From assembly GCF_017348835.2 (NCBI RefSeq), contig NZ_CP071375.1: 64,000 nt of DNA. One strand, given 5' to 3'. Origin of the DNA: Escherichia coli. GTDB taxonomy: Bacteria > Pseudomonadota > Gammaproteobacteria > Enterobacterales > Enterobacteriaceae. A program made the position numbers and the translations under genes. Positions 8,390-23,976 of the stretch are shown here, in pieces. Below the pieces are notes generated by a model. That model worked only from the letters and a program-made list of their open reading frames with translations. It did not search any database and had not been told where the DNA came from. Position 1 is the first letter of the stretch; every line of letters starts with the position of its first letter.

Positions 8390-9442
8390 TCACCCCCATT
8401 CCCGCATCCGCTGATGCAACGTCAACGACGGCTTCTCGGCAAACAGCTGCTGGTAATCCGTGGCAAATTGCCCCAGATGCCAGAATCCCCACTGCATGGC
8501 GGCGTCTTTTACCGTTGTGCTTTGCGACCACGGGCTTATCAGTTCGCGGCGTACGGCGTTCAGGCGAATGCGTTTCAGCCACGCGTTTGGGCCAATGCCT
8601 AAAATAGCGTGAAACGCGTTTTGTAGCGTGCGGCGGCTGACATGCAGTTGATTACACAAATCCAGCACCGTCACCGGTTCGGACATGTTTTCCAGCACAT
8701 ATTCACGGGCGCGGGAAAGTAATCTACGGTAACTCTGATGACTGATGCTTTCCGCCGTCACCATTGGTTGCGCTTCTTCCAGCATCGCCCCCATCGCCAT
8801 TAGCAAATTATCCCCCAGCACTTTTCGCACTGCAGGCTGATGAAGATTTTCCGGGTTCTCGCAAAACGTCGCCAGCGCCTGTTGGACAAAGCCCCACAGC
8901 GCGGCTTTATGCTGCTCTTTCACTTCCAGCGCCGACTGGCTACGCAACATATGTAATACCCGATCCGGATTATGCAAAAAGTTAGCCTGACGGGTGATGA
9001 CATCTTCAGAAAGCACTACGCCCAGGATCGTGTAATCGTCCGGCGTACTTAATTCAAACTCGGTTCCACCAGGGCGCGTCGCTATTTCTGCGCTTCCCAG
9101 ACATTGCGAACCGATAAATCCCTGCTCACCGCGCGTCGCCGGAATGCCAAACCAGAACGAGTTCGGCCAGACCAGACACGACTGACGCAGCGCCAGACCG
9201 GTGTATTCACGAAAAACCTGAATATCATCGAGTAGAATTTCCGTAAATTCACCATGAAACTTGCCCGGATGCAGCTGATCGTAAATCTGCTGCCAGGCGG
9301 TAATCGTTAAAGCATGTTCATAGACATCCGTTGTCTGTCGTTGATGAACATTATCCACTTCGACCTTCGGCGTGAGCTTCAGGTTTTCGGGTAAGGGCTC
9401 ATGATAAAGATGGTGCAAATTGGCTGTACGGGTCTTTTTCAT
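8390..9442 (-). CDS. eutR: AraC-family transcriptional activator of the eut operon
   Basis: 350-aa ORF with C-terminal AraC HTH; last gene of eut cluster. Confidence 0.92.
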
Positions 9443-9487
9443 GATGTTAATGCCGGGTGTTGTAGGACACCCGGCACCTCCGACAGG

Positions 9488-9988
9488 TTAATGGGGCTTG
9501 AGACGATAACGACTACTGCGTTTACGTAACGTCCCGGCAGAAAAGAGCTGTTCGAGCGCATTTCTGGCTTTTTCCAGCGGCCAGCCAAAGTGGGCAGCCA
9601 CTTCTCCTGCCGTCATTCCCTGACGTACTGATGTTAACAGCGCCAACAACTCGTCAGCAGATTCCGCGACGATAACTGGCGCGTCGGGTTCCTGTACGGG
9701 TTGCTTCGGCTGGCGGTTAAAGCCAGTAACCAGCCACTGGGTGTCATCGTCTGGCCGACCGATCTCCTTACGGCTGATGACACGCCCGGTACGCATCGCG
9801 GCAGCACAACCTGCGTCCAGCGCAGCACGACACGCCGCCAGATCGCCTTCCACCACCAGCGTTAAGCGACCAGGGTCAAGCACTTCGTGACTGAGCAGAC
9901 GAACGTTAGCTGCTTTGAGCATGGCATCCGCTGCATCTATCGCAGCGACCATGCCGTCCACTTCCAGCAATCCCAGTGCATTGATCAT
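9488..9988 (-). CDS. eutK: Microcompartment shell protein EutK
   Basis: BMC domain N-terminus (MINALGLLEVDGM...); ATG 9986-9988 with GGAGG RBS. Confidence 0.9.
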   Translation of the reverse strand: MINALGLLEVDGMVAAIDAADAMLKAANVRLLSHEVLDPGRLTLVVEGDLAACRAALDAGCAAAMRTGRVISRKEIGRPDDDTQWLVTGFNRQPKQPVQEPDAPVIVAESADELLALLTSVRQGMTAGEVAAHFGWPLEKARNALEQLFSAGTLRKRSSRYRLKPH

Positions 9989-10000
9989 CGGCAACCTCCA

Positions 10001-10660
10001 TTACGCACGCTGGATTGGATTACGCGCGATTTCCAGCACTGCATCGGTAAAGGCGTTACAGGCCGCTTTACACGCTGCCTGGCTACCGGTTAAAAATGCT
10101 GCCGAGTAGTTAGTTTCAGACGGTGGCGGGACATAGGTCACCAGCTGTACGTCGGCAGATTTCAACGCTGCATCAATGCCGTAGGTCGCTTCCAGCGGCG
10201 GTGCCACCAGATACGCCATCGGATCGCCAAGCGTGATCCCGGCGGTTGATGAGAGATAAGAACCGGTACGCGAAACTACATGTGCCAGGAATGCCGTATC
10301 TTGCGCATCATTAGCCCACTGGAAAGCAGCGCCATTTTCAATATGCGCAACCATCGCATCCAGACCTGCACGCACTTCCGCCGGGTTTGGCCCACCAAGC
10401 ATAATCAGCACTTCACCGGCAGTCGGTGACGGGCCGTGTGCAGCGCCCGCATACAGCGAGCGGCCATACACCACTTCGACCATCGCCTGTTTGGTTGCTT
10501 CATCAGCGGCAATGTAGGTGACGTCATCGGAATCAGCAGAAATCAGCCCGAGGCTACGAATATGCGGCGGCAATTTCAGTTCACGCGCAAATTCGGCGTT
10601 AACGGAGGCAATCACCCGCATGGCGGTTACCGACGGTCGAATCAAATCTAAAGCTGGCAT
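10001..10660 (-). CDS. eutL: Microcompartment shell protein EutL (tandem BMC domain)
   Basis: 219-aa ORF in conserved eut position. Confidence 0.92.
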
Positions 10661-10669
10661 GATGCCTCC

Positions 10670-11557
10670 TTATCGGGTCATGTTGATGCCGGATGCTTTC
10701 TGCTCCAGCATACGTTTCGCCAAATCCACAATGACGGCTGCGGCTTCAACCGGCGGCGTGCCGCCCTGGTGAATGTTAGAGATACAGGTGCGATCGGCCT
10801 CAACGGTGGTCGCCATACGCGGCGAGTAAACGGCGTAGCAGGAGAGGCTTTCTGACTGACCCAACCCCGGACGTTCGCCCACCAGCAGGATCACTACTTT
10901 CGCGCCGAGGATCTCACCGATCTGATCTTCAATCTTCACGCGACCATAACGAACAAAGAATGGTGTACCGACTTTCAGCCCGGCCTGTTTCAGGCCCGCC
11001 ATCAGCGGTGGCAGGATCTCTTCGTAGTTCACGGTGATCGCATCAGTTGACAGGCCATCAGAAATAACGACCTGTACGTCCGGATTAGCAACACACTGTG
11101 CTTTCAGCGCTTCAACAGCTTCTGCACACAGGCGGCGGCCCATATCCGGGCGAGTCAGGTAGAGATTTTTGTCGCTAATTTCGGAGCGTACTTCCAGCAA
11201 GCCCTGCGCTTTCACCCACTCTTCCGGCACTTCTTTCAGTACGGTATCTTTCGAACGAGAGTGATCGGCCAGGAAACGCAGCAGCGCCTGGGTACGCGGA
11301 CGCGGACCGGCACGACCGGTACAAACGCGGGCCACGGTGCTGCGGCGCAGTTCTGTTAATACGTCTGCGCGATGCGGGTTTTCAACACCAATCCACGCTT
11401 TTGCTTCAGCGGAACCTAAATCCAGCGCACAGCTTTCCGAGGTCACCGGTGCCGCACAGGTGGTAGTGGCGCACTTTGCTTCTGACGGCGCGGGGGCCGT
11501 TTGTCCCATTGACGCCATCACGCTGCGTACAATTTCTTCAATCTGTTTTTGATCCAT
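10670..11557 (-). CDS. eutC: Ethanolamine ammonia-lyase small subunit
   Basis: 295-aa ORF directly downstream of eutB. Confidence 0.93.
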
Positions 11558-11577
11558 GATGTGTTATCTCCGCGTCA

Positions 11578-12939
11578 TCAGAAGAACAGTGACGGATCGC
11601 CCGCCCGTTTGGTCAGGCGACCGTTTGCCATAATGCCCATGCTTTCCAGCCAGCGTTCAAACTCCGGTGACGGGCGCAGGTTGAGTAACTGACGCACAGT
11701 GGCGGTATCGTGGAATGCGGTGGTCTGGTAATTGAGCATGATGTCATCACCCAGCGGCATCCCCATGATGTAGTTGCAGCCTGCGGTGGCGAGCAGGATC
11801 ATCAGGTTTTCGTTGAGGTTCTGGTCAGCGTCAGCGTGGTTGGTGTAACAGCAGTCACAGCCCATAGAGATGCCGCTCAGCTTGCCCATAAAGTGATCTT
11901 CTAAGCCCGCACGAATAATCTGGCGGTCATTGTAGAGATACTCCGGCCCAATAAAGCCGACCACGGTGTTGACGATAAACGGATCGTAATGACGCGCCAG
12001 CCCGTAGTTACGCGCTTCCATGGTCACCTGGTCTGCGCCGTAGTTGGCACCCGCCGACAGCGCCGAACCTTGCCCGGTTTCGAAGTAGAGGCAGTTTTCC
12101 CCGGCGATACGGTTGAACTCTGCACCCACTGCGCGCGCTTCGTCGAGCATCGCCAGTTCCACGCCAAACTCTTTCAGCCCTTTTTCACTGCCACAGATAC
12201 TCTGGAAAATCAGCCCGCCTGGTGCGCCACGACGAATCGCTTCGATCTGGGTGGTGACGTGCGCCAGTACGCAGCCCTGAGTTGGGATGTTGAATTTGTC
12301 GATCACGCCATAGATGGTGTCCAGCACGCGGCTTAAGTTTTCCACGTCGTCAGTTACCGGGTTGACGCCGATCACCGCATCGCCCACCCCGAAGGAAAGC
12401 CCTTCGTAGATTTGCGCGGCGATACTTTGCACGTCGTCACGGGTGTCATTTGGCTGCAAACGGGCGCTAAAGGTGCCCGGAATACCGATGGTGGTATTGG
12501 CCTTTTTGATTACCGGCATTTTCTTCGCGCCGTAGATCAGGTCCGCGTTGGAGCAAATCTTCGCTACCGCCGCGACCACTTCCGAGGTCAGCCCTTTGCG
12601 GGTAAAGGCAATGTCGTCCACGCTGGTTTCATCGCTCAGCACATACTCACGCAGTTCGCTGATGCTCCAGTTTTTAATCTGGTTGTAGGCCGTTTCGTTA
12701 ACATCGTCCTGAATCAGCCGCGTCACGCAGTCATCTTCATAGGCAATCACCGGATTATTGCGGATGTCCGCTACGGTCATTTCCGACAACACCTGCTTTG
12801 CTGCCACGCGCTCCTGTGAGCTTGCCGCTGCAACGCCCGCCAGCACATCCCCCGAACGCAGTTCGTTGGCTTTAGCCAGCACCTCTTTTACATCCTTAAA
12901 CTGATATACATTGCCGAACAATGTGGTCTTTAGTTTCAT
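11578..12939 (-). CDS. eutB: Ethanolamine ammonia-lyase large subunit
   Basis: ORF trimmed to ATG 12937-12939 (MKLKTTLFGNVYQF...); 453 aa. Confidence 0.93.
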   Translation of the reverse strand: MKLKTTLFGNVYQFKDVKEVLAKANELRSGDVLAGVAAASSQERVAAKQVLSEMTVADIRNNPVIAYEDDCVTRLIQDDVNETAYNQIKNWSISELREYVLSDETSVDDIAFTRKGLTSEVVAAVAKICSNADLIYGAKKMPVIKKANTTIGIPGTFSARLQPNDTRDDVQSIAAQIYEGLSFGVGDAVIGVNPVTDDVENLSRVLDTIYGVIDKFNIPTQGCVLAHVTTQIEAIRRGAPGGLIFQSICGSEKGLKEFGVELAMLDEARAVGAEFNRIAGENCLYFETGQGSALSAGANYGADQVTMEARNYGLARHYDPFIVNTVVGFIGPEYLYNDRQIIRAGLEDHFMGKLSGISMGCDCCYTNHADADQNLNENLMILLATAGCNYIMGMPLGDDIMLNYQTTAFHDTATVRQLLNLRPSPEFERWLESMGIMANGRLTKRAGDPSLFF

Positions 12940-13050
12940 AAGTCGTTCCCTCAGGAAGAAGTGATGAGTGACATTTTTCACAGCCTTCAAACAATTCTAT
13001 TTCATCGTTAACCCTTGTCCTGTAAGGTAATTACCTTAGTACGCCCGCTA

Positions 13051-13087
13051 TTCATCCTGCCGAACGCAACCGAACGCGCCGGATACA
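13051..13087. repeat. Left att-like imperfect direct repeat (ttcatcctgcc..N17..ccggataca)
   Basis: Shares the 11-bp and 9-bp arms at the same spacing with 22476-22511. Confidence 0.5.
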
Positions 13088-13127
13088 TGAGCGGGGTTAT
13101 CGAGTCGTTAGATCGAGGTATCCGGTT

Positions 13128-14333
13128 TTGAGCAAGACACCACTGACAGCAAAGGCCATAGAGGCCGCACAACCGCAGGACAAGCCCTATAAACTCACCG
13201 ATTCACAGACACCTGGCCTGTTTTTGCTGGTCCATCCCAACGGCAGCAAATACTGGCGATTCCGGTATTGGATAGACAAGAAGGAGCGGTTACAGGCTAT
13301 TGGGGTGTATCCGCTGATTAGCCTCAAGGAAGCCCGCAAACGCGCCACAGAGAGCCGTTTACTGATAGCCCAGGGAATTGACCCAATGGATTTGGCACGC
13401 AAGGAGAAAGCCATTGATGCTCTTAATGCTATCGCCAGTTTTAAAGCTGTAGCAGAAGACTGGATGGCTACCAAGGTGAGCGGATGGAGTGAGAGCTATA
13501 CAAAGCAGGTCAGATCGGCACTAGAGAAAGATGTTTACCCCGTGCTAGGTAAGCGGTCGATAGTGGATATAACGGCCCGTGACGTGCTGGCGTTACTACA
13601 GAAAAAGGAGCGCACCGCACCGGAACAAGCCAGGAAATTACGCCAGCGTATCGGGGAGATCTTCAAATTTGCCGTTATCACTGAACTGGTTAACCGGAAT
13701 CCGGTTGCAGATCTGGATACGGCACTGAAAGCCAGACGCCCAGGCCATAACGCGTGGATACCGATTAATGAAATTCCGGCCTTCTACAAAGCCCTTGAGA
13801 GAGCTGGGAGCGTTCAGATTCAGACGGCAATACTTTTGCTCATCCTCACAGCTTTGAGGACGGCAGAATTGCGCCTGATGCGCTGGGAATGGGTAGATCT
13901 GCAATCGGCAACAATCACATTGCCCGCTGAAGTCATGAAGGCCCGCCGACCGCATGTTGTCCCGCTATCCCGGCAGGCGGTCGAGCTATTACAGGACCAG
14001 TTTACCCGCAGCGGATACAGTGCTTTCGTCTTTCCTGGCCGATTCATGGACAAGCCACTTTCAGCCAGTGCCATCCTTAAAGCCCTGGAGCGTATCGGAT
14101 ACAAGTCGATAGCCACAGGCCACGGCTGGCGGACCACCTTTTCAACGGCGCTTAATGAGTCCGGCAGGTACTCACCAGACTGGATCGAAATCCAACTGGC
14201 CCACGTTCCGAAAGGCGTGCGCGGTGTTTATAACCAGGCGGCCTACCTGAAGCAACGACGGGCCATGATGCAGGATTATAGCGACTGTATTGATTCAATA
14301 CTGGCTGGTGACGGTAATCCACTTGAACCGTGA
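13128..14333 (+). CDS. intZ: P4-family tyrosine site-specific integrase
   Basis: 401-aa ORF; AP2-like N-terminal domain; C-terminal catalytic region with R..HGWR..Y signature (HGWRTTFSTAL, RGVYNQAAY); first island gene beside the left repeat. Confidence 0.88.
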   Translation: MSKTPLTAKAIEAAQPQDKPYKLTDSQTPGLFLLVHPNGSKYWRFRYWIDKKERLQAIGVYPLISLKEARKRATESRLLIAQGIDPMDLARKEKAIDALNAIASFKAVAEDWMATKVSGWSESYTKQVRSALEKDVYPVLGKRSIVDITARDVLALLQKKERTAPEQARKLRQRIGEIFKFAVITELVNRNPVADLDTALKARRPGHNAWIPINEIPAFYKALERAGSVQIQTAILLLILTALRTAELRLMRWEWVDLQSATITLPAEVMKARRPHVVPLSRQAVELLQDQFTRSGYSAFVFPGRFMDKPLSASAILKALERIGYKSIATGHGWRTTFSTALNESGRYSPDWIEIQLAHVPKGVRGVYNQAAYLKQRRAMMQDYSDCIDSILAGDGNPLEP

Positions 14334-14455
14334 ACTATAAGGCCGGGTTTATACTCAATATCGACGGTTGAAGCGCTCAAAAAACAACCGTGACAACCGT
14401 CACAAATATGCAATGTCAATGATCTGAATCAATAAATTGCCAATTCTTCGTTTCC

Positions 14456-14470
14456 ACTTTCGAATGAAAG
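14456..14470. repeat. 15-bp motif actttcgaatgaaag, copy 1 (internal inverted repeat ctttc/gaaag)
   Basis: Exact duplicate of 14591-14605. Confidence 0.7.
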
Positions 14471-14590
14471 CAAGATGCAGAAAAATAAATCACCATGAAA
14501 TCATGTACTTATTAATTTTGACCAAATGGTCCAAAATATCCTCGGTGAATCCATGCTTGCCACAGCCAGATGATTAATATTTAACCCATG

Positions 14591-14605
14591 ACTTTCGAAT
14601 GAAAG
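14591..14605. repeat. 15-bp motif actttcgaatgaaag, copy 2
   Basis: Exact duplicate of 14456-14470, 135 bp away, in AT-rich non-coding DNA. Confidence 0.7.
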
Positions 14606-14733
14606 TAAATTGATAAAAAAGTCAGTGTACACTAACTAAATCGAATATTTTTTGCGCTATGTTTGAATGATAATTGAGCAAAACTTTCGCAAGGTGTGAC
14701 GATGTGAGTAATTAATTTTAACTCTACAATAAA

Positions 14734-14791
14734 CCCATCCCGACAGGGATGGTACCTGGAGCGGAGCGAGAGGGACCATCCCCCTGTTTTT
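14734..14791 (+). terminator. Nested hairpins followed by a T-run (terminator-like; may also act on the minus strand)
   Basis: cccatcccgacagggatgg hairpin overlapping ggatggtacc..N16..gggaccatcc stem, then ccctgttttt. Confidence 0.45.
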
Positions 14792-14884
14792 AGTCTTTTG
14801 AAGTTAGTTTTTTAAGGGATTAAATAATTTTGCCTCAAATGAGACCACACCATACAAGGCCAAAAACAATCAGTATTGCGTGGA

Positions 14885-15400
14885 TCAGGCTGGTTTTTTA
14901 ACTATATACCCCGTATGCCAAGGATTCTGATCGCGCGGCATCGGGTCCGCCTTGATAGACTCATAAAACTTATCAGCCATCTCAGCCACAAACTGTACAG
15001 AGGATTCGAACTCAGCGTTTTTGTGTGCGGGAGGAAACCAGAAGTCTAACACGCCAGCATTTCTATTTTTACATACAGCGTATATAAGATAAGCATCAGA
15101 TGTAGGGGTAACTTTTTCGAAACCACCGGGACCATAACGACCAGTAGACCAGTCATCCCAGCATTGTTCTGTCCCGCTATAGCCGTACTGATTGGTATAA
15201 AGACCAATATTTACATGGACTTTACGTAAGTGGATAGGATATACACACGGGGGTTTATGGAAAAGAGTATCCTTTCCAAAATCAGGATGATGTCCATATC
15301 TCCAATGATAAATAAACGAATCCTTAAAGCTCTTTAATTCATCGTTTGTTTTAAACTTATTATCACTGTAGACCTTACCAATAAATTCATTCTGGACCAT
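14885..15400 (-). CDS. Hypothetical protein (171 aa), distal gene of two-gene island cassette
   Basis: ORF 14885-15403; ATG at 15398-15400; overlaps upstream gene by 14 nt; Trp/Tyr/His-rich, no family recognised. Confidence 0.6.
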   Translation of the reverse strand: MVQNEFIGKVYSDNKFKTNDELKSFKDSFIYHWRYGHHPDFGKDTLFHKPPCVYPIHLRKVHVNIGLYTNQYGYSGTEQCWDDWSTGRYGPGGFEKVTPTSDAYLIYAVCKNRNAGVLDFWFPPAHKNAEFESSVQFVAEMADKFYESIKADPMPRDQNPWHTGYIVKKPA

Positions 15401-15734
15401 CAAAGCTTACACTCTTTAAGCGTTCTTCTCGTGAATCGAATAAATCTTTTGATAAATCACACGCTTGTGTGAACGTCATTTTTTTTACTCGTGGTACAGC
15501 CATAGGCGAGGCCGCATTCATCACTTTGTTTTCTTCGTGATCGAGAGTAGCAGTGTAGCGAAACATGACACTTTTACCGCGCACCAACTGGTATCCTAGT
15601 CGATACGCTAACGCGTCAAGATGCGTCAGACGATTTGTTTTACGCAAGCCAGTCATAGCTTTTGGCTTACGAGTGCGCACAGAAAGGGATTTCCCTTCTC
15701 GCTTAGTCGCAAACAAAGTAACTATTTTTGACAT
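15387..15734 (-). CDS. Hypothetical basic protein (115 aa), proximal gene of two-gene island cassette
   Basis: ATG 15732-15734 preceded by GGAGA RBS; Lys/Arg-rich; stop overlaps start of downstream gene. Confidence 0.55.
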   Translation of the reverse strand: MSKIVTLFATKREGKSLSVRTRKPKAMTGLRKTNRLTHLDALAYRLGYQLVRGKSVMFRYTATLDHEENKVMNAASPMAVPRVKKMTFTQACDLSKDLFDSREERLKSVSFDGPE

Positions 15735-16290
15735 GGTATCTCCTGACATCAATCTGCTAAGGCCATTGTGCCTTGTTTGAATAGTAAACTATTCGCCCAA
15801 TCTACACCAGTGATTTTCTTGACGCCAATAGTAAAGGCAGCATTGCCCACCACAGGCAGACAATGAGACTTCAGATAGCGCACCTTCTATCGCGCACGCG
15901 CTCAATAAAACCAACGACACCGCCATCCTGCCTGACCGATGTTTTTAACCAGCGTATACAGAGAAACAGACAACAGCATGAAATCAGCGTATATCCAGGT
16001 GCAGACGGCACTATCACACAACGCACAGCAGGCTGAGGTGAACACTCAAGCAACTTTATCCCCGCCACCGACCACCGCAAACTATCATGACCGTGCCAAA
16101 TTCAAAAGGAATGGCCCATATAACGCGATGAACACACATAAGCGCTACACTTGCTTACCTGAAAACTTCACAGCGTCACAGCGCGTTTTAGACACGTTAA
16201 AATTAATGAGATTTCATTAAATTTTCACCAGACACCGGAACAAGCCTATAAATCAAAAATGAATTACCGACATGCGCCGCTGGCGTTCAC

Positions 16291-16310
16291 AGGAAGAATC
16301 AATAACTTAG
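16291..16310. repeat. Imperfect direct repeat aggaagaatcaataacttag, copy 1
   Basis: 17/20 identical to 16391-16410, exactly 100 bp downstream. Confidence 0.55.
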
Positions 16311-16390
16311 GCCAATGGCGAAAGTTAAACAAAATCAAGAACTTGCAGAAATGCAGGATGAAGCAGCCGATGTGCCCCGTTGGATTTTAC

Positions 16391-16410
16391 CAGAAGAATC
16401 AACAAGTTAG
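16391..16410. repeat. Imperfect direct repeat cagaagaatcaacaagttag, copy 2
   Basis: See 16291-16310. Confidence 0.55.
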
Positions 16411-16662
16411 ACTCGGTGATTTCACCGACTCCTGCCGGACTACTGACCAGATCGAACCATTCCCCAAATTTGGGGAGAGCAAACCACACGCAGATCCTGC
16501 CAGGCTATTTCATCCCACCGCATCACGTATTTGCACACTTCCCCGCTGACGTGCTCATTTTGATAACGAGTTACCCGCTAGCCCTTGCCACATCACCATT
16601 TGTCGCGCTTTGACTAAATTAGCGACGTGCCTGTTATAGCGATACGCTAGTTATGCAGAAAG

Positions 16663-16682
16663 CGCGACATATCCAGCAACCA
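16663..16682. repeat. Exact 20-bp direct repeat cgcgacatatccagcaacca, copy 1
   Basis: Identical to 16790-16809; lies just upstream of the 16707 ORF start. Confidence 0.7.
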
Positions 16683-16706
16683 TGCACCCTACAGAGGAAT
16701 TGAATC

Positions 16707-17159
16707 ATGCGAGACATAGACTGGTCAGCTATCCCTTTCGATGATTTACCGCCCTGGCATCTGGACTGGGACGTAGACCAACGCGAAAACGCGACATATC
16801 CAGCAACCACCAGCATTACAGCGATGCGCCCCGTAAAGCCTAAGAAATACCAGGCAACCGACCTGATAGCTCACCTCAAAGCTATTGGCGGCGTATTTAC
16901 CGGAAGCAAAGACACGCTTGCACATGAAGTATGGCCCCGGAAGACGCCAGCGGGTCGAACCGTTTTACGCTTACTGACCGAACTGTCAGACAACGGCGAC
17001 GCTGTAGTGATTAACCGTGGTCGTTGTGGCGTGGAAGTTATTCTGACGCCGAAGAACAGGGCACAGACGCCTGAATTAAGCGCACCCAAGCAAATGCATA
17101 GCCAAAAATTAAGTCCAGCAGAACGCGTTATATCGCTTTTAAATGGCATCGGATTTTAA
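16707..17159 (+). CDS. Hypothetical protein (150 aa)
   Basis: ORF with GAGG RBS about 10 nt upstream of the ATG; non-repetitive composition; no family recognised. Confidence 0.5.
   Translation: MRDIDWSAIPFDDLPPWHLDWDVDQRENATYPATTSITAMRPVKPKKYQATDLIAHLKAIGGVFTGSKDTLAHEVWPRKTPAGRTVLRLLTELSDNGDAVVINRGRCGVEVILTPKNRAQTPELSAPKQMHSQKLSPAERVISLLNGIGF
16790..16809. repeat. Exact 20-bp direct repeat cgcgacatatccagcaacca, copy 2
   Basis: Inside the 5' end of the 16707 ORF; 127 bp from copy 1. Confidence 0.7.
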
Positions 17160-17185
17160 TTAATTTTGATGTGGTAATTGCAGGC

Positions 17186-17213
17186 AAAAAAATCCCGCCG
17201 GAGAAAGCGGGGA
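17186..17213 (-). terminator. Intrinsic terminator-like hairpin oriented for the minus strand
   Basis: Minus-strand reading ccccgctttctccggcggg followed by U7 (plus strand aaaaaaa-tcccgccggagaaagcgggga). Confidence 0.5.
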
Positions 17214-17446
17214 AGTGAAATCAATCGTTGTAGTTATAGATCACATTTTGGAGTTGAGGATGGCTAATCCTCGCTAATATTATCGCGCCGTTATGTGATG
17301 GGCGCAATTATTTCTTACTAATTAAAAGTTTTGTAAATATTACAGAATATCCCTTTTCACTATATGGTAAAAGATGTGAAACAGGGACATGAGGAATATA
17401 ATATTAAGTATCAACAGTAATGTTGGTCTTTAATTTCATTCAGGGC

Positions 17447-17490
17447 GCGGTGAGGGTTTTCTCCATATTTTTCCTCACCGCTACTTTTTC
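17447..17490 (+). terminator. Terminator/attenuator-like hairpin immediately upstream of the AlpA-like gene
   Basis: gcggtgagg..N17..cctcaccgc stem then tactttttc; a third complementary segment gaggtgag overlaps the RBS of the next gene. Confidence 0.45.
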
Positions 17491-17501
17491 GAGGTGAGAA
17501 C

Positions 17502-17693
17502 ATGAATGATAGCGAATTAATGACGGTGAACGAGGTAGCCGCTTTATTCGGCGTTACCCGTCGGACAATATTCCGGTGGATGAACAAGATTAAAGGCTGG
17601 CCCGTCCCGGTCAGTCCGATTGGCTCAAGAATTAAGTTTATCCGATCTGAGATTTTGGAATTCTATAAAAACAAAGGCGCTCGCCACCAATGA
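17502..17693 (+). CDS. AlpA/Xis-like small DNA-binding regulator (phage transcriptional regulator family)
   Basis: 63-aa ORF with HTH-like segment VNEVAALFGVTRRTIFRWM; GAGGTGA RBS. Confidence 0.65.
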   Translation: MNDSELMTVNEVAALFGVTRRTIFRWMNKIKGWPVPVSPIGSRIKFIRSEILEFYKNKGARHQ

Positions 17694-17769
17694 AAACAGC
17701 TACTGAGATTATCAAATAACCTATTGATTTAAAAAGCTAGCTACCGCAATTTCTGAAGGAATAGGCAGC

Positions 17770-18096
17770 ATGAAAATCAAAGCAAACACAATTAAAGAAA
17801 TAACATCAATCAAAGTAAAAGGAGCAGATGCCATGCATTCATTAGATAGTTATTTTCAGCGCACGACAGCCCCTAAATCAGCCGCCCAGGAACGCCGTGA
17901 GGAATTCCAGGAAAAAGTGATGCGTTCTGCTGATTATATTGCGGACAAGTTCGCGGAAACGGTTCGGCCACTTGTTGATGAAGTAGCTGATAAACTTCAG
18001 TCTGAAATGCCGGAAGACATGGAAGGCACTGCAAAGGCGCGACTCCTTTTTGAATTAAGTCGTCGTTTCGGCGTGTCAATAAGCACTTTTAAATAA
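17770..18096 (+). CDS. Hypothetical phage protein (108 aa)
   Basis: ORF in co-directional island gene string; no family recognised. Confidence 0.5.
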   Translation: MKIKANTIKEITSIKVKGADAMHSLDSYFQRTTAPKSAAQERREEFQEKVMRSADYIADKFAETVRPLVDEVADKLQSEMPEDMEGTAKARLLFELSRRFGVSISTFK

Positions 18097-18113
18097 TCGG
18101 AGGAGGAAAGACA

Positions 18114-18656
18114 ATGGACGCATTTGATGTACTGACAAACAAAGGCGATGAACTGGTAGCACAGCGTGATAAAACCGCCAACGAAGGGGAACGCGCACTG
18201 TTAAATAAGCAGATTAAAGCGATCCGTATGGCCCAGTTTAAATTAATCAGCAATGAAGTTATCGAAAAAATTAAACCGCAGATCCCACAAATCGTTGCTG
18301 ACGCTATTAAAGCCGCCGGACTGGAGAAACGCATTGCCGGGCTGAAAACGAACGCAGAGAAAATGGAGATGCACAAACAGAGCGGTGCTCCGACTCCGGA
18401 TGAGTACTTCTCACCGGATGCTGAGTTTATGGCGCAGGTTGAGGAACGTCTGGGTAGCTGTCTCACCGAGGAACAGTGTCGCTATTTTGATGGAGTGGAT
18501 AGTTCGGCAGGTATTGACCTGAACTCGTATTTCGGTCGTGAAATTGAGCATTTTGATGCCGCCCCGTCTATGCCGGAGCCAGAACCAGAAATGGCCGCCG
18601 ATCCTGAAGCTGAGCAACGGAAACGCGTATTCAATGCGATAGGGATTCGGTACTGA
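18114..18656 (+). CDS. Hypothetical phage protein (180 aa), acidic C-terminus
   Basis: ORF preceded by GGAGGAAAG RBS (18092-18108); no family recognised. Confidence 0.55.
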   Translation: MDAFDVLTNKGDELVAQRDKTANEGERALLNKQIKAIRMAQFKLISNEVIEKIKPQIPQIVADAIKAAGLEKRIAGLKTNAEKMEMHKQSGAPTPDEYFSPDAEFMAQVEERLGSCLTEEQCRYFDGVDSSAGIDLNSYFGREIEHFDAAPSMPEPEPEMAADPEAEQRKRVFNAIGIRY

Positions 18657-18707
18657 TCGGATAAAAGAAAGCCGGGAATTACCCCGGCTGACTTAACAAT
18701 GTGACCA

Positions 18708-19082
18708 ATGAACAAATCGGACAAGACAAACAGGATAAGCAGTCTCGAAACAATGTTCGGGAACTATATTAGCACAAGTCCGGAGAAAATCATCATGTTG
18801 GCACTACGCATCATGCAGGGCATCGCTAAGACCCTCGCAGAACATGTCTTAGACCTGAAACATTCGCCACTGAGCAAACAGGCCATGAAGCGCCAAACGC
18901 TTCGTCTGTGGGCTGAATATTCGCTTGGAACTATCAATAAAATCATCGACATGAAATCGGGGCCGAGCAACCAGAGCGCGGAGGAAATGGAGTTCATCAG
19001 GCGTTTAATTCTCATTCGCAGAGACATTCATAGCCAGTTACACAGCGTGGGAATCGATATTAATGATGGGACGGGCGATTAA
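18708..19082 (+). CDS. Hypothetical phage protein (124 aa)
   Basis: ORF in co-directional gene string. Confidence 0.45.
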   Translation: MNKSDKTNRISSLETMFGNYISTSPEKIIMLALRIMQGIAKTLAEHVLDLKHSPLSKQAMKRQTLRLWAEYSLGTINKIIDMKSGPSNQSAEEMEFIRRLILIRRDIHSQLHSVGIDINDGTGD

Positions 19083-19120
19083 TTTTCGGACAAGTACTAT
19101 GCGCGCGCGAGGAGCTGAAC

Positions 19121-19351
19121 ATGAAGCAAGATATTGCAGACAGGCTGGAGATACTCGAAGGCCAGCGGGCAGAAGCGAAACAACTACGTAAGCAGGCCAG
19201 AAGAGCGCACAGGAACTACGAAGCAGAATCACTGACCGCTTTCATCAACTTCACAAACCGTTGCATCCTGGAGTGTTACAGGGAGGATGCAGAAAACTGG
19301 CTGGATTCATTGCCAGAACAGACTCTGCATGAACTGAACGGCGACCAGTAA
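19121..19351 (+). CDS. Hypothetical phage protein (76 aa)
   Basis: ORF with GAGGAG RBS upstream. Confidence 0.45.
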   Translation: MKQDIADRLEILEGQRAEAKQLRKQARRAHRNYEAESLTAFINFTNRCILECYREDAENWLDSLPEQTLHELNGDQ

Positions 19352-19638
19352 ATAAATCCAGTACGTTTCCCGCAGTGCGCATAACGTACATTATGTGAAA
19401 AACGATATGGATATATATCAGTCTGACTTCAATGAAGAAAACGGACTTCCAGCATCAACCACAAAGAAGTATGGCTAATGCAGCTTTATAAGCCATTGAT
19501 TCTATTAAACGATATTTTTTGTGATTGGTTGAAGCAAACCAAAACACGATGCCACTGAAGCGTTAATAAACTGTTTCAATGTGAAATTATCAGAGTAAAG
19601 AACAATTTGGAGGGTCCGCAAACGCGGATAACAATATC

Positions 19639-21819
19639 ATGAGTGGAAATCTCGGGACCATATACTACGAGGTCGATGCCCGCACTGGGAAACTTCTTAT
19701 CGCGCAACAGCAGGCGGAAGAGGCGTTCGATCGCATTGAACGAGGAGCGCGGAAGGCTGATAGCGGCGTCAAAAAGTTAAATACGCAGATGACTAAAACA
19801 TCAGCCGCAGTCAAAACCAACCTTTCCCCGGCAATCCGTAACGCATCATACCAGATCGCAGACCTTGCCACTCAATTGCAGATGGGCGGTAATGCGCTTC
19901 AGGCGTTCGCTGTGCAGGGTGCGCAGTTATTAGCTGGCTTTGGCACGATGGGCGCGGTAGCTGGCGCGGTGCTGGCTATCGCTGGCGCTATGGGTGGAAG
20001 CCTGGCACAAGGCGCTGATAGTGCAGCCGGATCGGTTGAGTATCTGGACAAGGCGATCACCAAACTGAACGAGGTCATAGCTGTAAATGAACAGGGCGTG
20101 ACGGTGATGAGTGATAGTTACGCCAGACTTTCTAAGGTTAACGCTGAAGTAGCGAAACAGATGCGGAACATGGCTGAAATTCAGGCAATTGCAGCACTGC
20201 GTGACCTGAAAGAACAGGCAAGCCAGGCACAGGGGGAAATGTCGTCATTCTGGCGCAGCTTGCAGGGTGGTAAAGCTGACGCAGCAGCAGCAGCACAGGC
20301 ACTTGATGATCTTGGAATCACAACCAACGACTACAAAGAGGCGATAGCCATACTGAACGCCAATCAGCCGGATACACAGGCGCAAATGGCAACGCTAGCT
20401 AAGTCCGTGATGTACATAGGCGAGGAATACAACCTGACAAACCAGCAAGCCTACGAGTTCATCCGAGCACTAAATAGGGCCGCGACAACGAGAACGCCGG
20501 AAGCCATGCAGGAACTATCGGGCTTCATGCAGGTATTGCTACAGGACACCGAAAACGGTAACGAGGCATTCCGTGAACTGGCTATCAAATTCGTTGATGC
20601 ACAAACCAAAGGCGCAATGCTGGAAGACCAACTAAACCGACTGAAAGGCGCTATCAGTGACGCAGCCACAGAAGCCAGAAACGCCAATTTTACCACTATG
20701 CTCAACACCGTCGCCGCACGCCTGGCAGCCATTGAGCAAGGTTGGGAGGCAGGCGTTAGGATGCAGATGAAAGCCCAGGGCTACACTGAAGAGCAGATCG
20801 ATGAATATGTGAACATGGAAACGGCGTACCGTGATGCAAAAGCCGCTTTGGACGAGAAGAATAAGGCCGACCGTGAAGCTATTGCGCTATCCAAACGCCA
20901 GGCCGCAGAAGCAGCCCGCAAGGCAAAACAGGAAGAAGCTGAAGCACAACGCAAGGCCAAACAGTTAGCCGCGCAGAAGGAGCAGGCAGGACGCTTTACG
21001 CAGCAAGTAATGACGGAATACCTGACGACCGTAGATCCGGCAACAGGCAAGGCGTTTAACCCTGCCGCACAAGTAGAAATGCAGGAGCAGCAGAAGAAAG
21101 CGGCGCTGGATAAATACAGACAGTTGGGCGTCCTGGATGAACAGCAGTACCAGAACACGCTAACCGCCATCCAGAAAACCGCGTCAATGCGCCGCCAGCA
21201 AATCATCAAAGACGAGGCCGACACGTTATTCAACAATCAGCAACAGTTGATCGGCACATTTGGCGATTTCTTCGGTGAACTGTCTGGAGTCATAGCAGAC
21301 GGTGCAGGTGAGCAAAACGCGGCATATCAAGCGCTATTTGCTGTGCAGAAGGGTTTTGTATTGGCATCAGCAGCTTTAAGCCTTCAGAAAGCGCTTGCTG
21401 AGGCAAACGCCTTGCCTTTCCCGGCTAATCTTCCGGCCTATGCGCAAGCTATGTCAGCAGGCACGCAGATCATTTCAGCTATTCGTGGAATAGCTTTCGG
21501 TGGCGGACGCTACAACGGCGGCGCGGTTGGTGCTGGCAACCTGTACCGCGTGGGTGAACACGGTAAGCCTGAGATATTCAAGGCGAACAATGGCAGCCAG
21601 TACATGATCCCAGGTGATAACGGTCGCGTGATAAGTAATCGTGACATTGGCGGCGGTGGCGGCGTAACAATCAACAGCCCGATCACCATTAACACTACGA
21701 ATGGCTTCAGTGATGAAGACTCAAGGCGTCTTGAGGAAGCGATGAAGCGCGTAGCTATGGGCGTTTGCAGGCAGGAGTCAACCAGACCGGGAGGAATGTT
21801 AGCCCCGCGCCGTCGTTAA
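19639..21819 (+). CDS. Phage tail tape-measure-like protein (lambdoid H-like), orphan
   Basis: 726-aa Ala/Gln-rich coiled-coil ORF; C-terminal GNLYR motif and Gly-rich tail as in lambda H; no neighbouring tail genes. Confidence 0.6.
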   Translation: MSGNLGTIYYEVDARTGKLLIAQQQAEEAFDRIERGARKADSGVKKLNTQMTKTSAAVKTNLSPAIRNASYQIADLATQLQMGGNALQAFAVQGAQLLAGFGTMGAVAGAVLAIAGAMGGSLAQGADSAAGSVEYLDKAITKLNEVIAVNEQGVTVMSDSYARLSKVNAEVAKQMRNMAEIQAIAALRDLKEQASQAQGEMSSFWRSLQGGKADAAAAAQALDDLGITTNDYKEAIAILNANQPDTQAQMATLAKSVMYIGEEYNLTNQQAYEFIRALNRAATTRTPEAMQELSGFMQVLLQDTENGNEAFRELAIKFVDAQTKGAMLEDQLNRLKGAISDAATEARNANFTTMLNTVAARLAAIEQGWEAGVRMQMKAQGYTEEQIDEYVNMETAYRDAKAALDEKNKADREAIALSKRQAAEAARKAKQEEAEAQRKAKQLAAQKEQAGRFTQQVMTEYLTTVDPATGKAFNPAAQVEMQEQQKKAALDKYRQLGVLDEQQYQNTLTAIQKTASMRRQQIIKDEADTLFNNQQQLIGTFGDFFGELSGVIADGAGEQNAAYQALFAVQKGFVLASAALSLQKALAEANALPFPANLPAYAQAMSAGTQIISAIRGIAFGGGRYNGGAVGAGNLYRVGEHGKPEIFKANNGSQYMIPGDNGRVISNRDIGGGGGVTINSPITINTTNGFSDEDSRRLEEAMKRVAMGVCRQESTRPGGMLAPRRR

Positions 21820-22315
21820 CCAAATCCCACGCCAGGGGGATAGACTGGCGGCCTTTCAATTCCGTTGAAACGACGGAATCAAACACCCCGATTCAGGGTA
21901 TTTAAACGTCGCGTTTCACGACATTTATCTAAGTCATTGATTTATATTGTAACTCATAATTGAGTTGCGCCGACCATCCCGCCACAAACGCTCCTACGCA
22001 AAAATTCCCTCACAATTACCCTGCCAATTTTCCAGATTTCACGTATACGCGCCTATATCCCCGCCACCGGATACACGCCCGCTTATACCGGATACTTTTA
22101 TGCCATCATTATTAAATCCATTAATAATCATCAAACCATAATTAGCACAACTTATAATCGAACAAAAAACACACAACATTGATAATGATTTTTTCTGGTT
22201 ATACTTATCTAAAAAAGTGGTATGGGAAGTAACTTATTGTTTTGTAATTACAAATTTATTGCGTGGTCAGATGAACAGACTTGCGCACCTCCCGAAAAAC
22301 ACGCGAAAATCGAAG

Positions 22316-22426
22316 TGTTCTTTCTTTTTTTGTTTTTTATTTTTTTATTTTCTCTTTTTCTTCTCTTTCCGGTTCTCTTCTTTTTCTGGTTTTGGTTTTT
22401 TCCTTTTTTATTTTTATTCTTTCTTC
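22316..22426. repeat. ~110-nt homopyrimidine (T/C-rich) low-complexity tract
   Basis: About 90% pyrimidine on the top strand by eye; no plausible coding frame. Confidence 0.7.
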
Positions 22427-22475
22427 AGGGTTGTGATCAAACACACCAAAACATTTTCGCCACAAAAGCGTTAAT

Positions 22476-22511
22476 TTCATCCTGCCAGACCATTCACTTT
22501 CACCGGATACA
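22476..22511. repeat. Right att-like imperfect direct repeat (ttcatcctgcc..N16..ccggataca)
   Basis: Partner of 13051-13087; a further partial copy (caccggatacac) at 22065-22076. Confidence 0.5.
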
Positions 22512-22572
22512 CAGCCGGATATAATCCCGCTAACACCCAGCCACCCAGCATCACGCCTGATAACTACCGTAT

Positions 22573-23976
22573 TCAGGAAGGAAATGCGAGTGATTTCACC
22601 GTCACCGGCACAACCGATCCGCCAAAAAGAGGCGTACCAATGTCGATATAGTCCCCCGCGCGGACAATCACTTCGTCAATGACTGCCAACGGGAGTTGTT
22701 GTAGCTGTGGGCGCAACAACATGCCCAGAGCTTTACCAAAGTCCTGCCCGGCCACCACCAGCAGGGGATGCGGATTCGGAAAACGCGCGACGAAATCGAC
22801 CAACGCGTTGATGACCGTCAGTACCGCGGCGTAACGCACAGGCAGCGAGGCGGGAAGCGCCAGCACGTACGCGTCAGTTTTGGGATCAAGATCCAGCTGA
22901 ATCAGCGCCTGTTGCCAGGCACTCACCAGATCCGTTTCATCAATCGGGATCGCCACCGGCAAATTGCGCAGCGGCAGTTGTACGCCCTCCAGCCAGATTG
23001 TGCTGCCAGAGAGCGAAAGGGTATGTGCACCCGCGCCAATCACCGTGGCGCGTACGGTTTGCGCCGGAAACTGCACGTTCATCTCACGCAGGCGCGGATG
23101 GTCATGCAGCGCCGTTGCCAGAAGCGGGCCAATATCGGCAAAACAGAACGGGTCGGCGGGCTGGTGGCGATAACATTCGCCCACGCCGCCAGAAAGCGTA
23201 ATGATTTCGGGCGTAACACCTGCGGGCAGCAAACCGGTTTGCATTAATGCCTGCGCGAGCGGCGAAAGCGTTCCGTCAATCACTTCGACAATCAGCTCTG
23301 CCATCCGCCAGGTAACCTGCACCAGCTGCGCGCCGGTCAGCGAACGGGCGTCGGTGCCTGCGCCGAAGCACTCATCCACAATCATCTGCCCCGGTTTATG
23401 AGCGTAAACCACGCGCCCCTGGCTGTCGGTTTCCAGCAGGCGACCACCGACGTTGAGGCAGGCAGTGCCGCTGATTTTTCCGGCATCGAACAGGGCGTAG
23501 TTCGCGGTGCCACCGCCGATGTCGATATTCAGTACCCGACACAGCCGTTGTTCAGAAAGGGTTTGCGCCCCGGCACCGTGACCGGCGATCACGGATTCGA
23601 GGTGCGGCCCGGCGCTGGCGACGACAAAATCGCCCAGCGACTGAGAGAGCGCCATCACCGCCGGGCGAGCATTGCGGGTTTTCGCGCTTTCACCGGTGAT
23701 GATGATGGCACCAGAATCAACGCTTTCCGGCGCAATGCCCGCAGCCTGATATTGCTCTAAAATCAGCGATTTCAGTTCCGCTTCTTTTAAACCACCCTGT
23801 TTATCGACAGGGGTAAAGAACACCGGGCTTTGCCAGCTAATTTCGCGTTTGATGAATTCGTAGCGCGGCACCTGCGACACCGCCGCACGGTTAACCAGTT
23901 CCAGGTGGGAGAAAATCACCTGGGTGGTGGTGGTGCCGATATCGATACCGACGCTCAGTAGCTGGCGAGTGTTCAC
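22573..23976 (-). CDS. eutA: Ethanolamine ammonia-lyase reactivating factor
   Basis: 467-aa ORF; conserved eut order. Confidence 0.92.
   Translation of the reverse strand: MNTRQLLSVGIDIGTTTTQVIFSHLELVNRAAVSQVPRYEFIKREISWQSPVFFTPVDKQGGLKEAELKSLILEQYQAAGIAPESVDSGAIIITGESAKTRNARPAVMALSQSLGDFVVASAGPHLESVIAGHGAGAQTLSEQRLCRVLNIDIGGGTANYALFDAGKISGTACLNVGGRLLETDSQGRVVYAHKPGQMIVDECFGAGTDARSLTGAQLVQVTWRMAELIVEVIDGTLSPLAQALMQTGLLPAGVTPEIITLSGGVGECYRHQPADPFCFADIGPLLATALHDHPRLREMNVQFPAQTVRATVIGAGAHTLSLSGSTIWLEGVQLPLRNLPVAIPIDETDLVSAWQQALIQLDLDPKTDAYVLALPASLPVRYAAVLTVINALVDFVARFPNPHPLLVVAGQDFGKALGMLLRPQLQQLPLAVIDEVIVRAGDYIDIGTPLFGGSVVPVTVKSLAFPS

Follow-up and report, generated by a model that had tools for sequence, protein, structure and literature searches.

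The 64,000-nt stretch of Escherichia coli DNA analyzed here (hereafter the window; contig NZ_CP071375.1 of assembly GCF_017348835.2) contains, at positions 19639..21819 (+), an ATG-initiated open reading frame (ORF) of 726 aa, whose coordinates and length are as first noted in an initial annotation. We identify its product, currently a "hypothetical protein", as a phage-type tape measure protein (TMP). Judged from its sequence and context, the gene belongs to a small integrative mobile element of the CPZ-55 family and not to a prophage, is intact and under strong purifying selection, and encodes a modular protein in which mEp021-like ends enclose exchangeable rulers of conserved length. That the gene encodes a working TMP and resides on a mobile element is highly probable. 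The full model, in which a satellite encodes a substitute TMP that gives rise to chimeric helper tails, is the reading that our analysis favors by a modest degree.

Identification of a Full-Length Tape Measure Protein

The assignment is based on significant homology to established TMP families. The protein matched phrog_1538 (E 2.8e-103, aa 1-455) and phrog_1107 (E 6.7e-58, aa 412-725), and its sole PDB match at E<=0.1 was gp18, the TMP of Shigella siphophage Sf11 (9occ_M; E 5e-11, aa 29-686), which has a near-identical C-terminal motif. These matches bear out the tape-measure likeness proposed initially, but the label "lambda H-type" has to be dropped: Tape_meas_lam_C is absent among Pfam hits at E<=1, lambda gpH was not returned by the PDB search at E<=0.1, and the nearest relatives are the TMPs of Sf11 and of the mEp021 group, which are non-lambdoid coliphages. 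An exhaustive HMMER search recovered 3,763 related clusters, including full-length alignments to proteins of 727-729 aa. The alignment with these proteins runs from end to end, which indicates a full-length TMP.

Curated models did not recognize the protein, with Pfam TMP_2 remaining below threshold (19.6 bits vs a cut-off of 30.2) and the NCBIfam TMP models giving zero matches, which explains the annotation as "hypothetical protein". This miss is a limit of model sensitivity and not evidence against TMP homology.

Consistent with the initial description of an Ala/Gln-rich ORF with a GNLYR motif and a Gly-rich tail, the protein contains 17.1% Ala, 8.7% Gln, and 8.7% Gly, GNLYR occupies residues 633-637, and Gly-rich tracts including GGGGG occur at about residues 620-670. 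Secondary structure prediction yields a short N-terminal hairpin, a helix nearly unbroken over aa 22-620, a Gly-rich non-helical region (621-691), and a terminal helix (692-712); only secondary structure was used because the three-dimensional model was unreliable (pLDDT 46). Two hydrophobic segments are located at aa 86-127 and aa 561-592. A TMP is expected to be long and mostly alpha-helical, to have hydrophobic segments, and to end in a separate region that binds the tail tip, and the predicted protein shows this architecture.

Modular Architecture and Relationship to mEp021-Type Phages

In a BLASTP comparison with the 781-aa TMP of mEp021, only aa 1-83 (51% identity) and aa 620-726 (65%) of the island protein matched, and the ruler between them is unrelated in sequence to that of mEp021. 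The best phage matches of the C-terminal region are in the E. coli mEp021 group (63-72%). Among related elements the modules have been exchanged in different combinations: the N-terminal 80 aa are 92-96% identical between elements with rulers only 29% identical (e.g., L099), three rulers that differ from one another, in proteins of 726, 729, and 732 aa (including the elements L004 and L093), carry C-terminal 100 aa of 99-100% identity, and one ruler type (type A), found across 119 clusters, is combined with seven or more different C-terminal modules. The homologous C-terminal helix of Sf11 gp18 lies buried within the tail tip of that phage (PMC12724387).

Further links to the same phages were found in the sister elements. 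Their TerS proteins and YffO of K-12 show 32-45% identity to mEp021 TerS, the neck protein of L005 is related to mEp021_59 (45%, E 7e-36), and the L004 TMP is homologous to the mEp021 TMP over most of its length. A search of the phage collection for the helper by way of TerS was set aside, as the sister-element protein reached an identity of about 31% to TerS of the Sf6/HK620 type. In mEp021 and a related prophage, moron blocks on either side isolate the TMP cassette, and the genes M, L, K, I, and J come after it. The TMP of this prophage is 727 aa long, and another eut-site island ends with a 787-aa TMP; element TMPs of 726-732 and 787 aa therefore mirror phage TMPs of 727 and 781 aa. As a separate observation, YffO of MG1655 (L003, 7112-7528), annotated as "uncharacterized protein", is TerS-like and 45% identical to the N-terminal part of mEp021 TerS.

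Conservation and Selection

At 90% identity, proteins with a type-A TMP fall into more than 120 clusters, almost all of them from E. coli, and the length is 725-729 aa in 118 of 120 cluster representatives. The ratio of nonsynonymous to synonymous substitution rates (dN/dS) is 0.057-0.077 at dS 0.06-0.51 (Nei-Gojobori, aa 1-630), and 0.067 for the window TMP against that of L002. No phage counterpart of the type-A ruler above ~37% identity was present in INPHARED or IMG/VR, and all type-A copies with context examined sit in elements of this kind, with no phage copy found, which indicates that selection acted on island-borne copies. The window sequence is 100% identical in E. coli strains PE164, EP91B, and LH13-b, where the gene is likewise annotated as "hypothetical protein" (WP_096124187.1).

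Upstream conservation extends beyond the coding region. The previous ORF ends at 19351, leaving a gap of exactly 287 nt as originally stated; this sequence is non-coding, but it is a conserved leader and not debris, with 82-92% conservation in seven of eight variants, and it is absent from mEp021. A small ORF in the leader was rejected because an indel breaks it between variants, and the leader is for this reason called non-coding. Between the Shine-Dalgarno (SD) sequence GGAGG and the TMP start lies a 6-bp hairpin (UCCGCA...CGCGGA), which L093 keeps through compensatory changes (CCCGA...UCGGG). The hairpin, which mEp021 does not have, is possibly an element that controls translation, with modest statistical support (z -1.2 to -3.0).

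Layout and Insertion Site of the Element

The element is a 9.6-kb insertion (12959-22580) between eutB and eutA. It follows eutA, encodes an IntZ integrase, and is bordered on both sides by an 8-bp duplication, TCAGGAAG; no long att repeat was found, only this duplication. CPZ-55 has been published with the same insertion point and the same 8-bp TCAGGAAG duplication (PMC6379469). The TMP is the sole phage-related gene of the element, in which no remnants of other structural or lysis genes were found, and an Rfam scan of the island gave zero hits at E<=1. Features of the element are as follows.

12951..12958: left TCAGGAAG copy (attL core), 8 bp, 11 bp from the eutB start codon (sequence reading)
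12959..13127: left arm with a degenerate copy of the eutA 3' end; homology to the yghO-site copy L093 begins at 12958
13128..14333 (+): IntZ-type tyrosine integrase, 401 aa (Pfam Arm-DNA-bind_3, Phage_int_M, Phage_integrase; phrog_1; 91% identical to K-12 IntZ)
14885..15752 (-): variable cargo, YafO-family toxin (172 aa) and 121-aa upstream partner (RefSeq; weak Pfam YafO_toxin; phrog_1651, E 9e-43)
15928..16410: conserved non-coding region with 44-nt direct repeats, 94-95% identical to L087 DNA ~460 nt downstream of a DUF5906 primase-helicase gene
16707..17159 (+): o150, 150 aa, 100% identical in circular contig L086
17064..17501 (+): conserved regulatory region upstream of the rightward genes, promoter-like site at 17254-17283
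17502..17693 (+): AlpA/excisionase-type helix-turn-helix (HTH) protein, 63 aa, family F4 (Pfam HTH_17, phrog_66, TIGR01764 excise); in 9 of 11 elements
17770..18096 (+): o108, family F3, part of the core of TMP-bearing elements; found in 9 of the 11 compared
18114..18656 (+): o180, family F8, specific to the window subgroup, 99.3-99.6% identity across strains
18795..19082 (+): o124, family F2, 95 aa from the RefSeq start (ORF opens at 18708), constant TMP companion (AlphaFold pLDDT 88)
19121..19351 (+): o76, family F9, in the slot of TerS plus F16/F25 of sister elements (element comparison)
19352..19638 (+): conserved non-coding leader of the TMP cassette, ending with SD GGAGG (19610-19614), hairpin (~19615-19629), and ATG
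19639..21819 (+): TMP, 726 aa, RefSeq WP_096124187.1 "hypothetical protein" (PHROG, PDB, dN/dS)
19639..19878 (+): TMP N-terminal module, aa 1-80, 48-51% identical to mEp021 TMP
19879..21495 (+): TMP "ruler", aa 81-619, predicted almost continuous helix
21496..21816 (+): C-terminal module of the TMP, aa 620-726, with the Gly-rich motif GNLYRVGEHGKPEIF...QYMIPGDNGRVISN followed by a terminal helix
21820..21859 (+): 40 nt after the stop with hairpin CGCCAG...CTGGCG, conserved in all variants
21972..22054: conserved non-coding block of 65-83 nt after TMP in seven variants, 85-95% conserved, no Rfam match
22486..22572: right arm, kept in every eut-site copy; conservation in the yghO-site copy L093 is 93% from 22490 onward
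22573..22580: right TCAGGAAG copy (attR core), overlapping the eutA stop codon

The sequence downstream of the TMP gene had been described as junk-like. The 753 nt between the TMP stop and the eutA stop codon (22573) are indeed non-coding, but parts of them are conserved elements. The hairpin sequence directly after the stop is probably the cassette end or a terminator, and the 65-83-nt block has a counterpart in K-12 CPZ-55 (L003 8177-8241), between yffP and yffQ. A T-rich low-complexity tract at 22319-22434, with seven overlapping copies of a 37-nt repeat, is common to L092 and L004; its opposite strand holds a RefSeq hypothetical ORF of 47 aa.

Toward the left end, the YafO toxin and its 121-aa partner also occur as a pair in the yghO-site element L093, and L005 has a YafO-family toxin. 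The two copies of the 44-nt direct repeat (16267-16310 and 16367-16410) are 100 nt apart and are possibly an iteron- or ori-like region kept by an element without a rep gene. A second repeat set, with two 25-nt copies 127 nt apart, lies within 16658-16809. Searches of Pfam, PHROGs, PADLOC, and NCBIfam gave zero family matches for o150, and o76 gave zero TerS signal.

The element lies between eutA and eutB inside the eut operon (- strand; 11578-23976), and expression of eutBCLK downstream of the 9.6-kb insert would need read-through or an outward promoter. According to the literature, insertion at the CPZ-55 site disrupts eut function in K-12.

Related Elements and Mobility

A family core was defined over 11 compared elements, and those bearing a TMP have in common an integrase, the AlpA HTH protein, F3 (o108), F2 (o124), and the TMP. 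The TMP gene is the last gene of the island in the window variant, as originally noted, but sister elements have three to four further genes downstream of it. A TerS-like gene is present in six elements, of which five belong to one family (including K-12 YffO) and one, in L086, is Sf6-type. The TerS of L005 exceeds the Pfam Sf6_terminase cut-off, and this element also encodes an HK97 gp10/Neck1-like protein.

The same small gene set was found at a second integration site and on other backbones. The L093 copy splits yghO. Contig L086 (GCA_958412445.1, CATYSW010000065.1) is 10,266 bp long with a 127-nt terminal overlap, which indicates a circle of 10.1 kb; its resolvase/XRE backbone is held in common with 8-kb E. 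coli plasmids (NZ_CP062859.1), and its cargo comprises o150, AlpA, F3, F2, the Sf6-type TerS, and a 91%-identical TMP. In metagenome contigs (L087), an 89%-identical TMP is accompanied by a DUF5906 primase-helicase-type gene, in a backbone that was not found in complete E. coli genomes. Identity between strains is mosaic, amounting to 99-100% for o108-o76, 97-99% for the flanking eut genes, 91-98% for the TMP ruler, and 83-98% for intZ, a pattern that vertical descent cannot explain. CPZ-55 has been reported to excise in K-12 at low frequency (PMC3105296).

A commoner island lineage is represented by L101 (strain MLI104K1, 9140-14016), in which the TMP slot is occupied by a truncated pyridoxal phosphate-dependent decarboxylase gene, a gadC-like antiporter gene, and a murI-like racemase gene, followed by the insertion sequences (IS) IS1 and IS5. 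In this lineage, the island has been put to new use as a vehicle for metabolic genes.

A scan across species, with one genome per species, detected 73 loci with the TMP C-terminal motif. Sixty-one of these are in full prophages, none of which carries markers of the E. coli family. In another eight (L110, L113, L114, L115, L123, L132, L144, and L147), from Pantoea (three), Chimaeribacter, Erwinia, Proteus, Leclercia, and Pasteurella, the TMP gene adjoins a Zn-ribbon-Toprim-DUF927 primase-helicase gene, while genes for heads and tail tips are absent. Confirmed neighbors include an AntA antirepressor at three of the eight loci and an integrase at one. These loci indicate that TMP-carrying satellite-like elements extend more widely than the E. 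coli family.

Compared with what defines a satellite, the window element is small (9.6 kb), has its own integrase (IntZ) and an AlpA-type HTH protein as excision regulator, and has no full virion or lysis gene set. Mobility between sites and replicons is documented by the yghO copy, the circular contig, the mosaicism, and CPZ-55 excision. Morphogenesis genes homologous to those of a helper are represented by the TMP ends and, in sister elements, by TerS and neck genes; the window variant has the TMP alone.

Proposed Mechanism

When an mEp021-type helper grows in the same cell, the element would express its rightward genes. A trimer of the island TMP could then dock into the helper tail-tip complex through the C-terminal helix, and the helper tube would polymerize around it, resulting in chimeric tails with a length dictated by the ruler of 726 residues. 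Such tails are predicted to measure ~110-116 nm, and a 781-aa TMP would make them ~8-9 nm longer. If the PLEs (see below) are a guide, chimeric tails would be used to transfer the element, to redirect the tail assembly of the helper, or for both purposes, and swapping of C-terminal modules would tune helper specificity. Since the window variant has neither TerS nor a replication gene, its own packaging would rely on the helper or on sister elements, or may have been lost.

Several observations weigh against the proposed model. As the initial annotation stated, the gene is an orphan: no tail assembly chaperone (TAC), tail, or tail-tip genes were detectable up- or downstream in the element with Pfam, PHROGs, or NCBIfam, so the canonical setting of a TMP gene, after a frameshifting chaperone gene and before tail-tip genes, is not present. 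In mEp021-type phages, too, moron blocks part the TMP gene from both. The predicted structure of F2, the constant companion, is a three-helix bundle with generic fold matches alone, none of them to a TAC. A hidden TerS in the window element was rejected (best hidden Markov model E 0.16 vs 7.6e-63 for the YffO control), and the element has no replication gene and no nucleotide similarity to mEp021. C-terminal modules of known phages reach 72% identity at most, which leaves the helper at the level of candidates; there is no helper prophage within the window. IMG/VR contained no near-identical copy. The attP junction (right arm, TCAGGAAG, left arm) gave 0 hits in IMG/VR, species-representative genomes, and JGI metagenomes, in a scan whose power is low because exact matches were required and one genome per species was used. 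No sequence evidence for phage-driven induction, packaging, or transfer was found for any member. Moreover, the TMP-bearing island occurs in 72 of 5,426 genomes and TMP-less, IS-scarred derivatives in 228; since the latter are commoner, the TMP is not needed for chromosomal residence.

Alternative Explanations

One alternative is defense by interference only, in which the TMP, as a decoy or dominant-negative subunit, enters or blocks the assembly of tails when mEp021-type phages infect, thereby reducing phage yield and shielding the bacterial population, the island itself not being packaged. For the window copy this is a serious rival because TerS, a replication gene, and any detectable pac/cos or other nucleotide similarity to mEp021 are all absent from it, yet its TMP is under purifying selection (dN/dS 0.067 vs L002). 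Tail-assembly interference is an established defense strategy of prophages and of chromosomal islands inducible by phages (PICIs; Tab and Tai papers), helper-like docking ends on a foreign ruler are what a poison subunit requires, and the island has other cargo in its YafO toxin-antitoxin pair. Close relatives of the TMP (89-91% identical) that adjoin TerS, or that are carried by a plasmid-like circle or by a backbone with a primase-helicase, nevertheless point to transfer, and the strict ruler length in phage-matching classes is expected of a working ruler but is not required of a poison. A comparison of the TMP and its neighbors with the PADLOC 2023 families, which did not include the Tab and Tai sequences, revealed generic HTH similarity alone and no defense family match. 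Although we consider interference as the only function unlikely, it does not mutually exclude a role in transfer.

The remaining explanations assign the gene no role in a satellite. Recent uptake of phage cassettes by repeated recombination at the conserved ends, with signs of selection dating from phage genomes and no role in the island, would fit the clear exchange of modules by recombination, the homology of the TMP ends to phage TMPs, and the likewise isolated TMP cassette of mEp021-type phages. This is improbable in view of the type-A ruler, which is found in >120 E. coli clusters and, above ~37% identity, in no INPHARED or IMG/VR phage, with dS of 0.3-0.5 at dN/dS 0.06 having arisen among island copies, and in view of the island-specific leader that is conserved together with the gene and absent from mEp021. 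A function co-opted by the host, for example as a membrane or envelope protein using the TMP hydrophobic segments, could be suggested by the two such segments and by an annotation that is merely hypothetical, but the gene is patchy (72 of 5,426 genomes), horizontally mosaic, and always linked to integrase, AlpA, and terminase-type genes, and host use offers no rationale for conserved phage-type docking ends and ruler length. We rate it as very improbable. The word "co-opted" in the initial annotation is closest to the truth, with the difference that the co-opting party appears to be a mobile satellite-like element and not the host. The other option raised there, a decayed prophage of which the ORF is a simple remnant, would agree with the annotation of the CPZ-55 relative as a cryptic prophage and with the IS-scarred TMP-less derivatives. 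A drifting ORF left by a once complete lambdoid prophage is nearly incompatible, though, with the strong purifying selection (dN/dS 0.06-0.08), the length conserved in 118 of 120 representatives, the conserved leader, the fixed gene set on several backbones and at two sites, and the lack of further structural or lysis gene remnants. None of the 73 cross-species loci examined is a random remnant, all being complete prophages or primase-bearing small elements.

Comparison With Known Systems

The closest functional parallel to satellite-encoded TMP substitution is provided by the PLEs of Vibrio cholerae, all of which encode a TMP that is selectively built into virions, with tails shortened as predicted from the number of residues (Nature 2026, PMC12987554). 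The PLE TMP is needed for 96-99.9% of transduction (PMC12987554). Like the island, PLE1/4/11 with tmp-tac(-bhuB) are small integrative elements without a full virion set, whose own TMP is distant from that of the helper (tens of percent identity). The two are not related in sequence, and their helpers are of different types, ICP1 of the PLEs being a myophage and the candidates for the island siphophages. A TAC and a baseplate hub are encoded by PLEs but were not detected in the island, and PLE genes for replication and capsid remodeling are absent from the window variant. PLE function has been shown experimentally, whereas that of the island is inferred.

K-12 CPZ-55 (intZ, yffL-yffS) resembles the window element in integrase family (91%), insertion point, TCAGGAAG, right arm, and the 65-nt block. 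Its YffO resembles the TerS-like proteins of sister elements, and TMP-bearing elements of the ES5 type contain counterparts of YffP, YffQ, and YffS, but CPZ-55 has no TMP, leader, F2, F3, or AlpA genes. CPZ-55 corresponds to the ES5-type layout (YffO, YffP, 65-nt block, yffQ, yffS) minus exactly the leader and TMP cassette. The literature treats it solely as a cryptic or "grounded" prophage and not as a satellite (PMC6379469).

The mEp021 group (mEpimmI) and Sf11 share with the island the TMP N-terminal ~80 aa and C-terminal ~107 aa as well as the isolated TMP cassette, and the TerS and gp10-like neck protein of the mEp021 group are the nearest relatives of the sister-element genes. In contrast to the island, these are complete 50-55-kb phages with an unrelated ruler (55 aa longer in mEp021) and no nucleotide similarity.

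PICIs, capsid-forming PICIs (cf-PICIs), and P4-like satellites are small like the island, also encode an integrase and an AlpA-type regulator, and possess morphogenesis genes of the hijacking type, represented by TerS in the sister elements; some cf-PICIs have been reported with putative tmp genes. The pri-rep module that PICIs carry next to an ori is absent from the intZ forms, with no primase or helicase in the window element and DUF5906 confined to the L087 backbone. None of the capsid, portal, protease, and connector genes of cf-PICIs was found in any member of the E. coli family, with a gp10-like neck gene in L005 only, and P4 psu, sid, delta, and alpha-primase gave zero PHROG or Pfam hits in the window element. 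Mycobacterial EPIPs (preprint 10.64898/2025.12.02.691453) are similar in being satellites reported with a TMP and altered tail lengths, but differ in their actinobacterial host, serine integrase, and larger gene content, including capsid-related genes. Literature reports of satellite TMPs are limited to PLEs, Vibrio elements resembling PLEs, a sampled set of cf-PICIs, and the mycobacterial EPIPs. In its gene content, the E. coli family is distinct from PICIs, cf-PICIs, and P4-like satellites.

Implications

Until 2025, satellites were thought to take helper tails unchanged; the PLE work then showed TMP substitution in a Vibrio myophage pair. An E. coli siphophage counterpart, if true, would bring TMP substitution into the most tractable genetic system. 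Natural variants are at hand, including seven C-terminal modules on one ruler, one C-terminal module on four rulers, and elements with or without a terminase gene, and the widely used reference strain ATCC 8739 has the element.

As a tentative generalization, which we regard as conceivable and not yet as the likelier case, CPZ-55-type islands might be unrecognized minimal siphophage satellites of mEp021-group (mEpimmI) phages that act by TMP substitution, the C-terminal module picking the helper tip and the ruler setting a satellite-specific tail length. Terminase-less variants would then be tail-poisoning defense islands, and the elements combining a primase and a TMP would make the strategy general in Gammaproteobacteria. 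If the satellite interpretation is true, the K-12 "cryptic prophage" CPZ-55, with YffO as a TerS-like protein, would be reassigned to a satellite family, and more than 120 clusters of "hypothetical proteins" would receive names.

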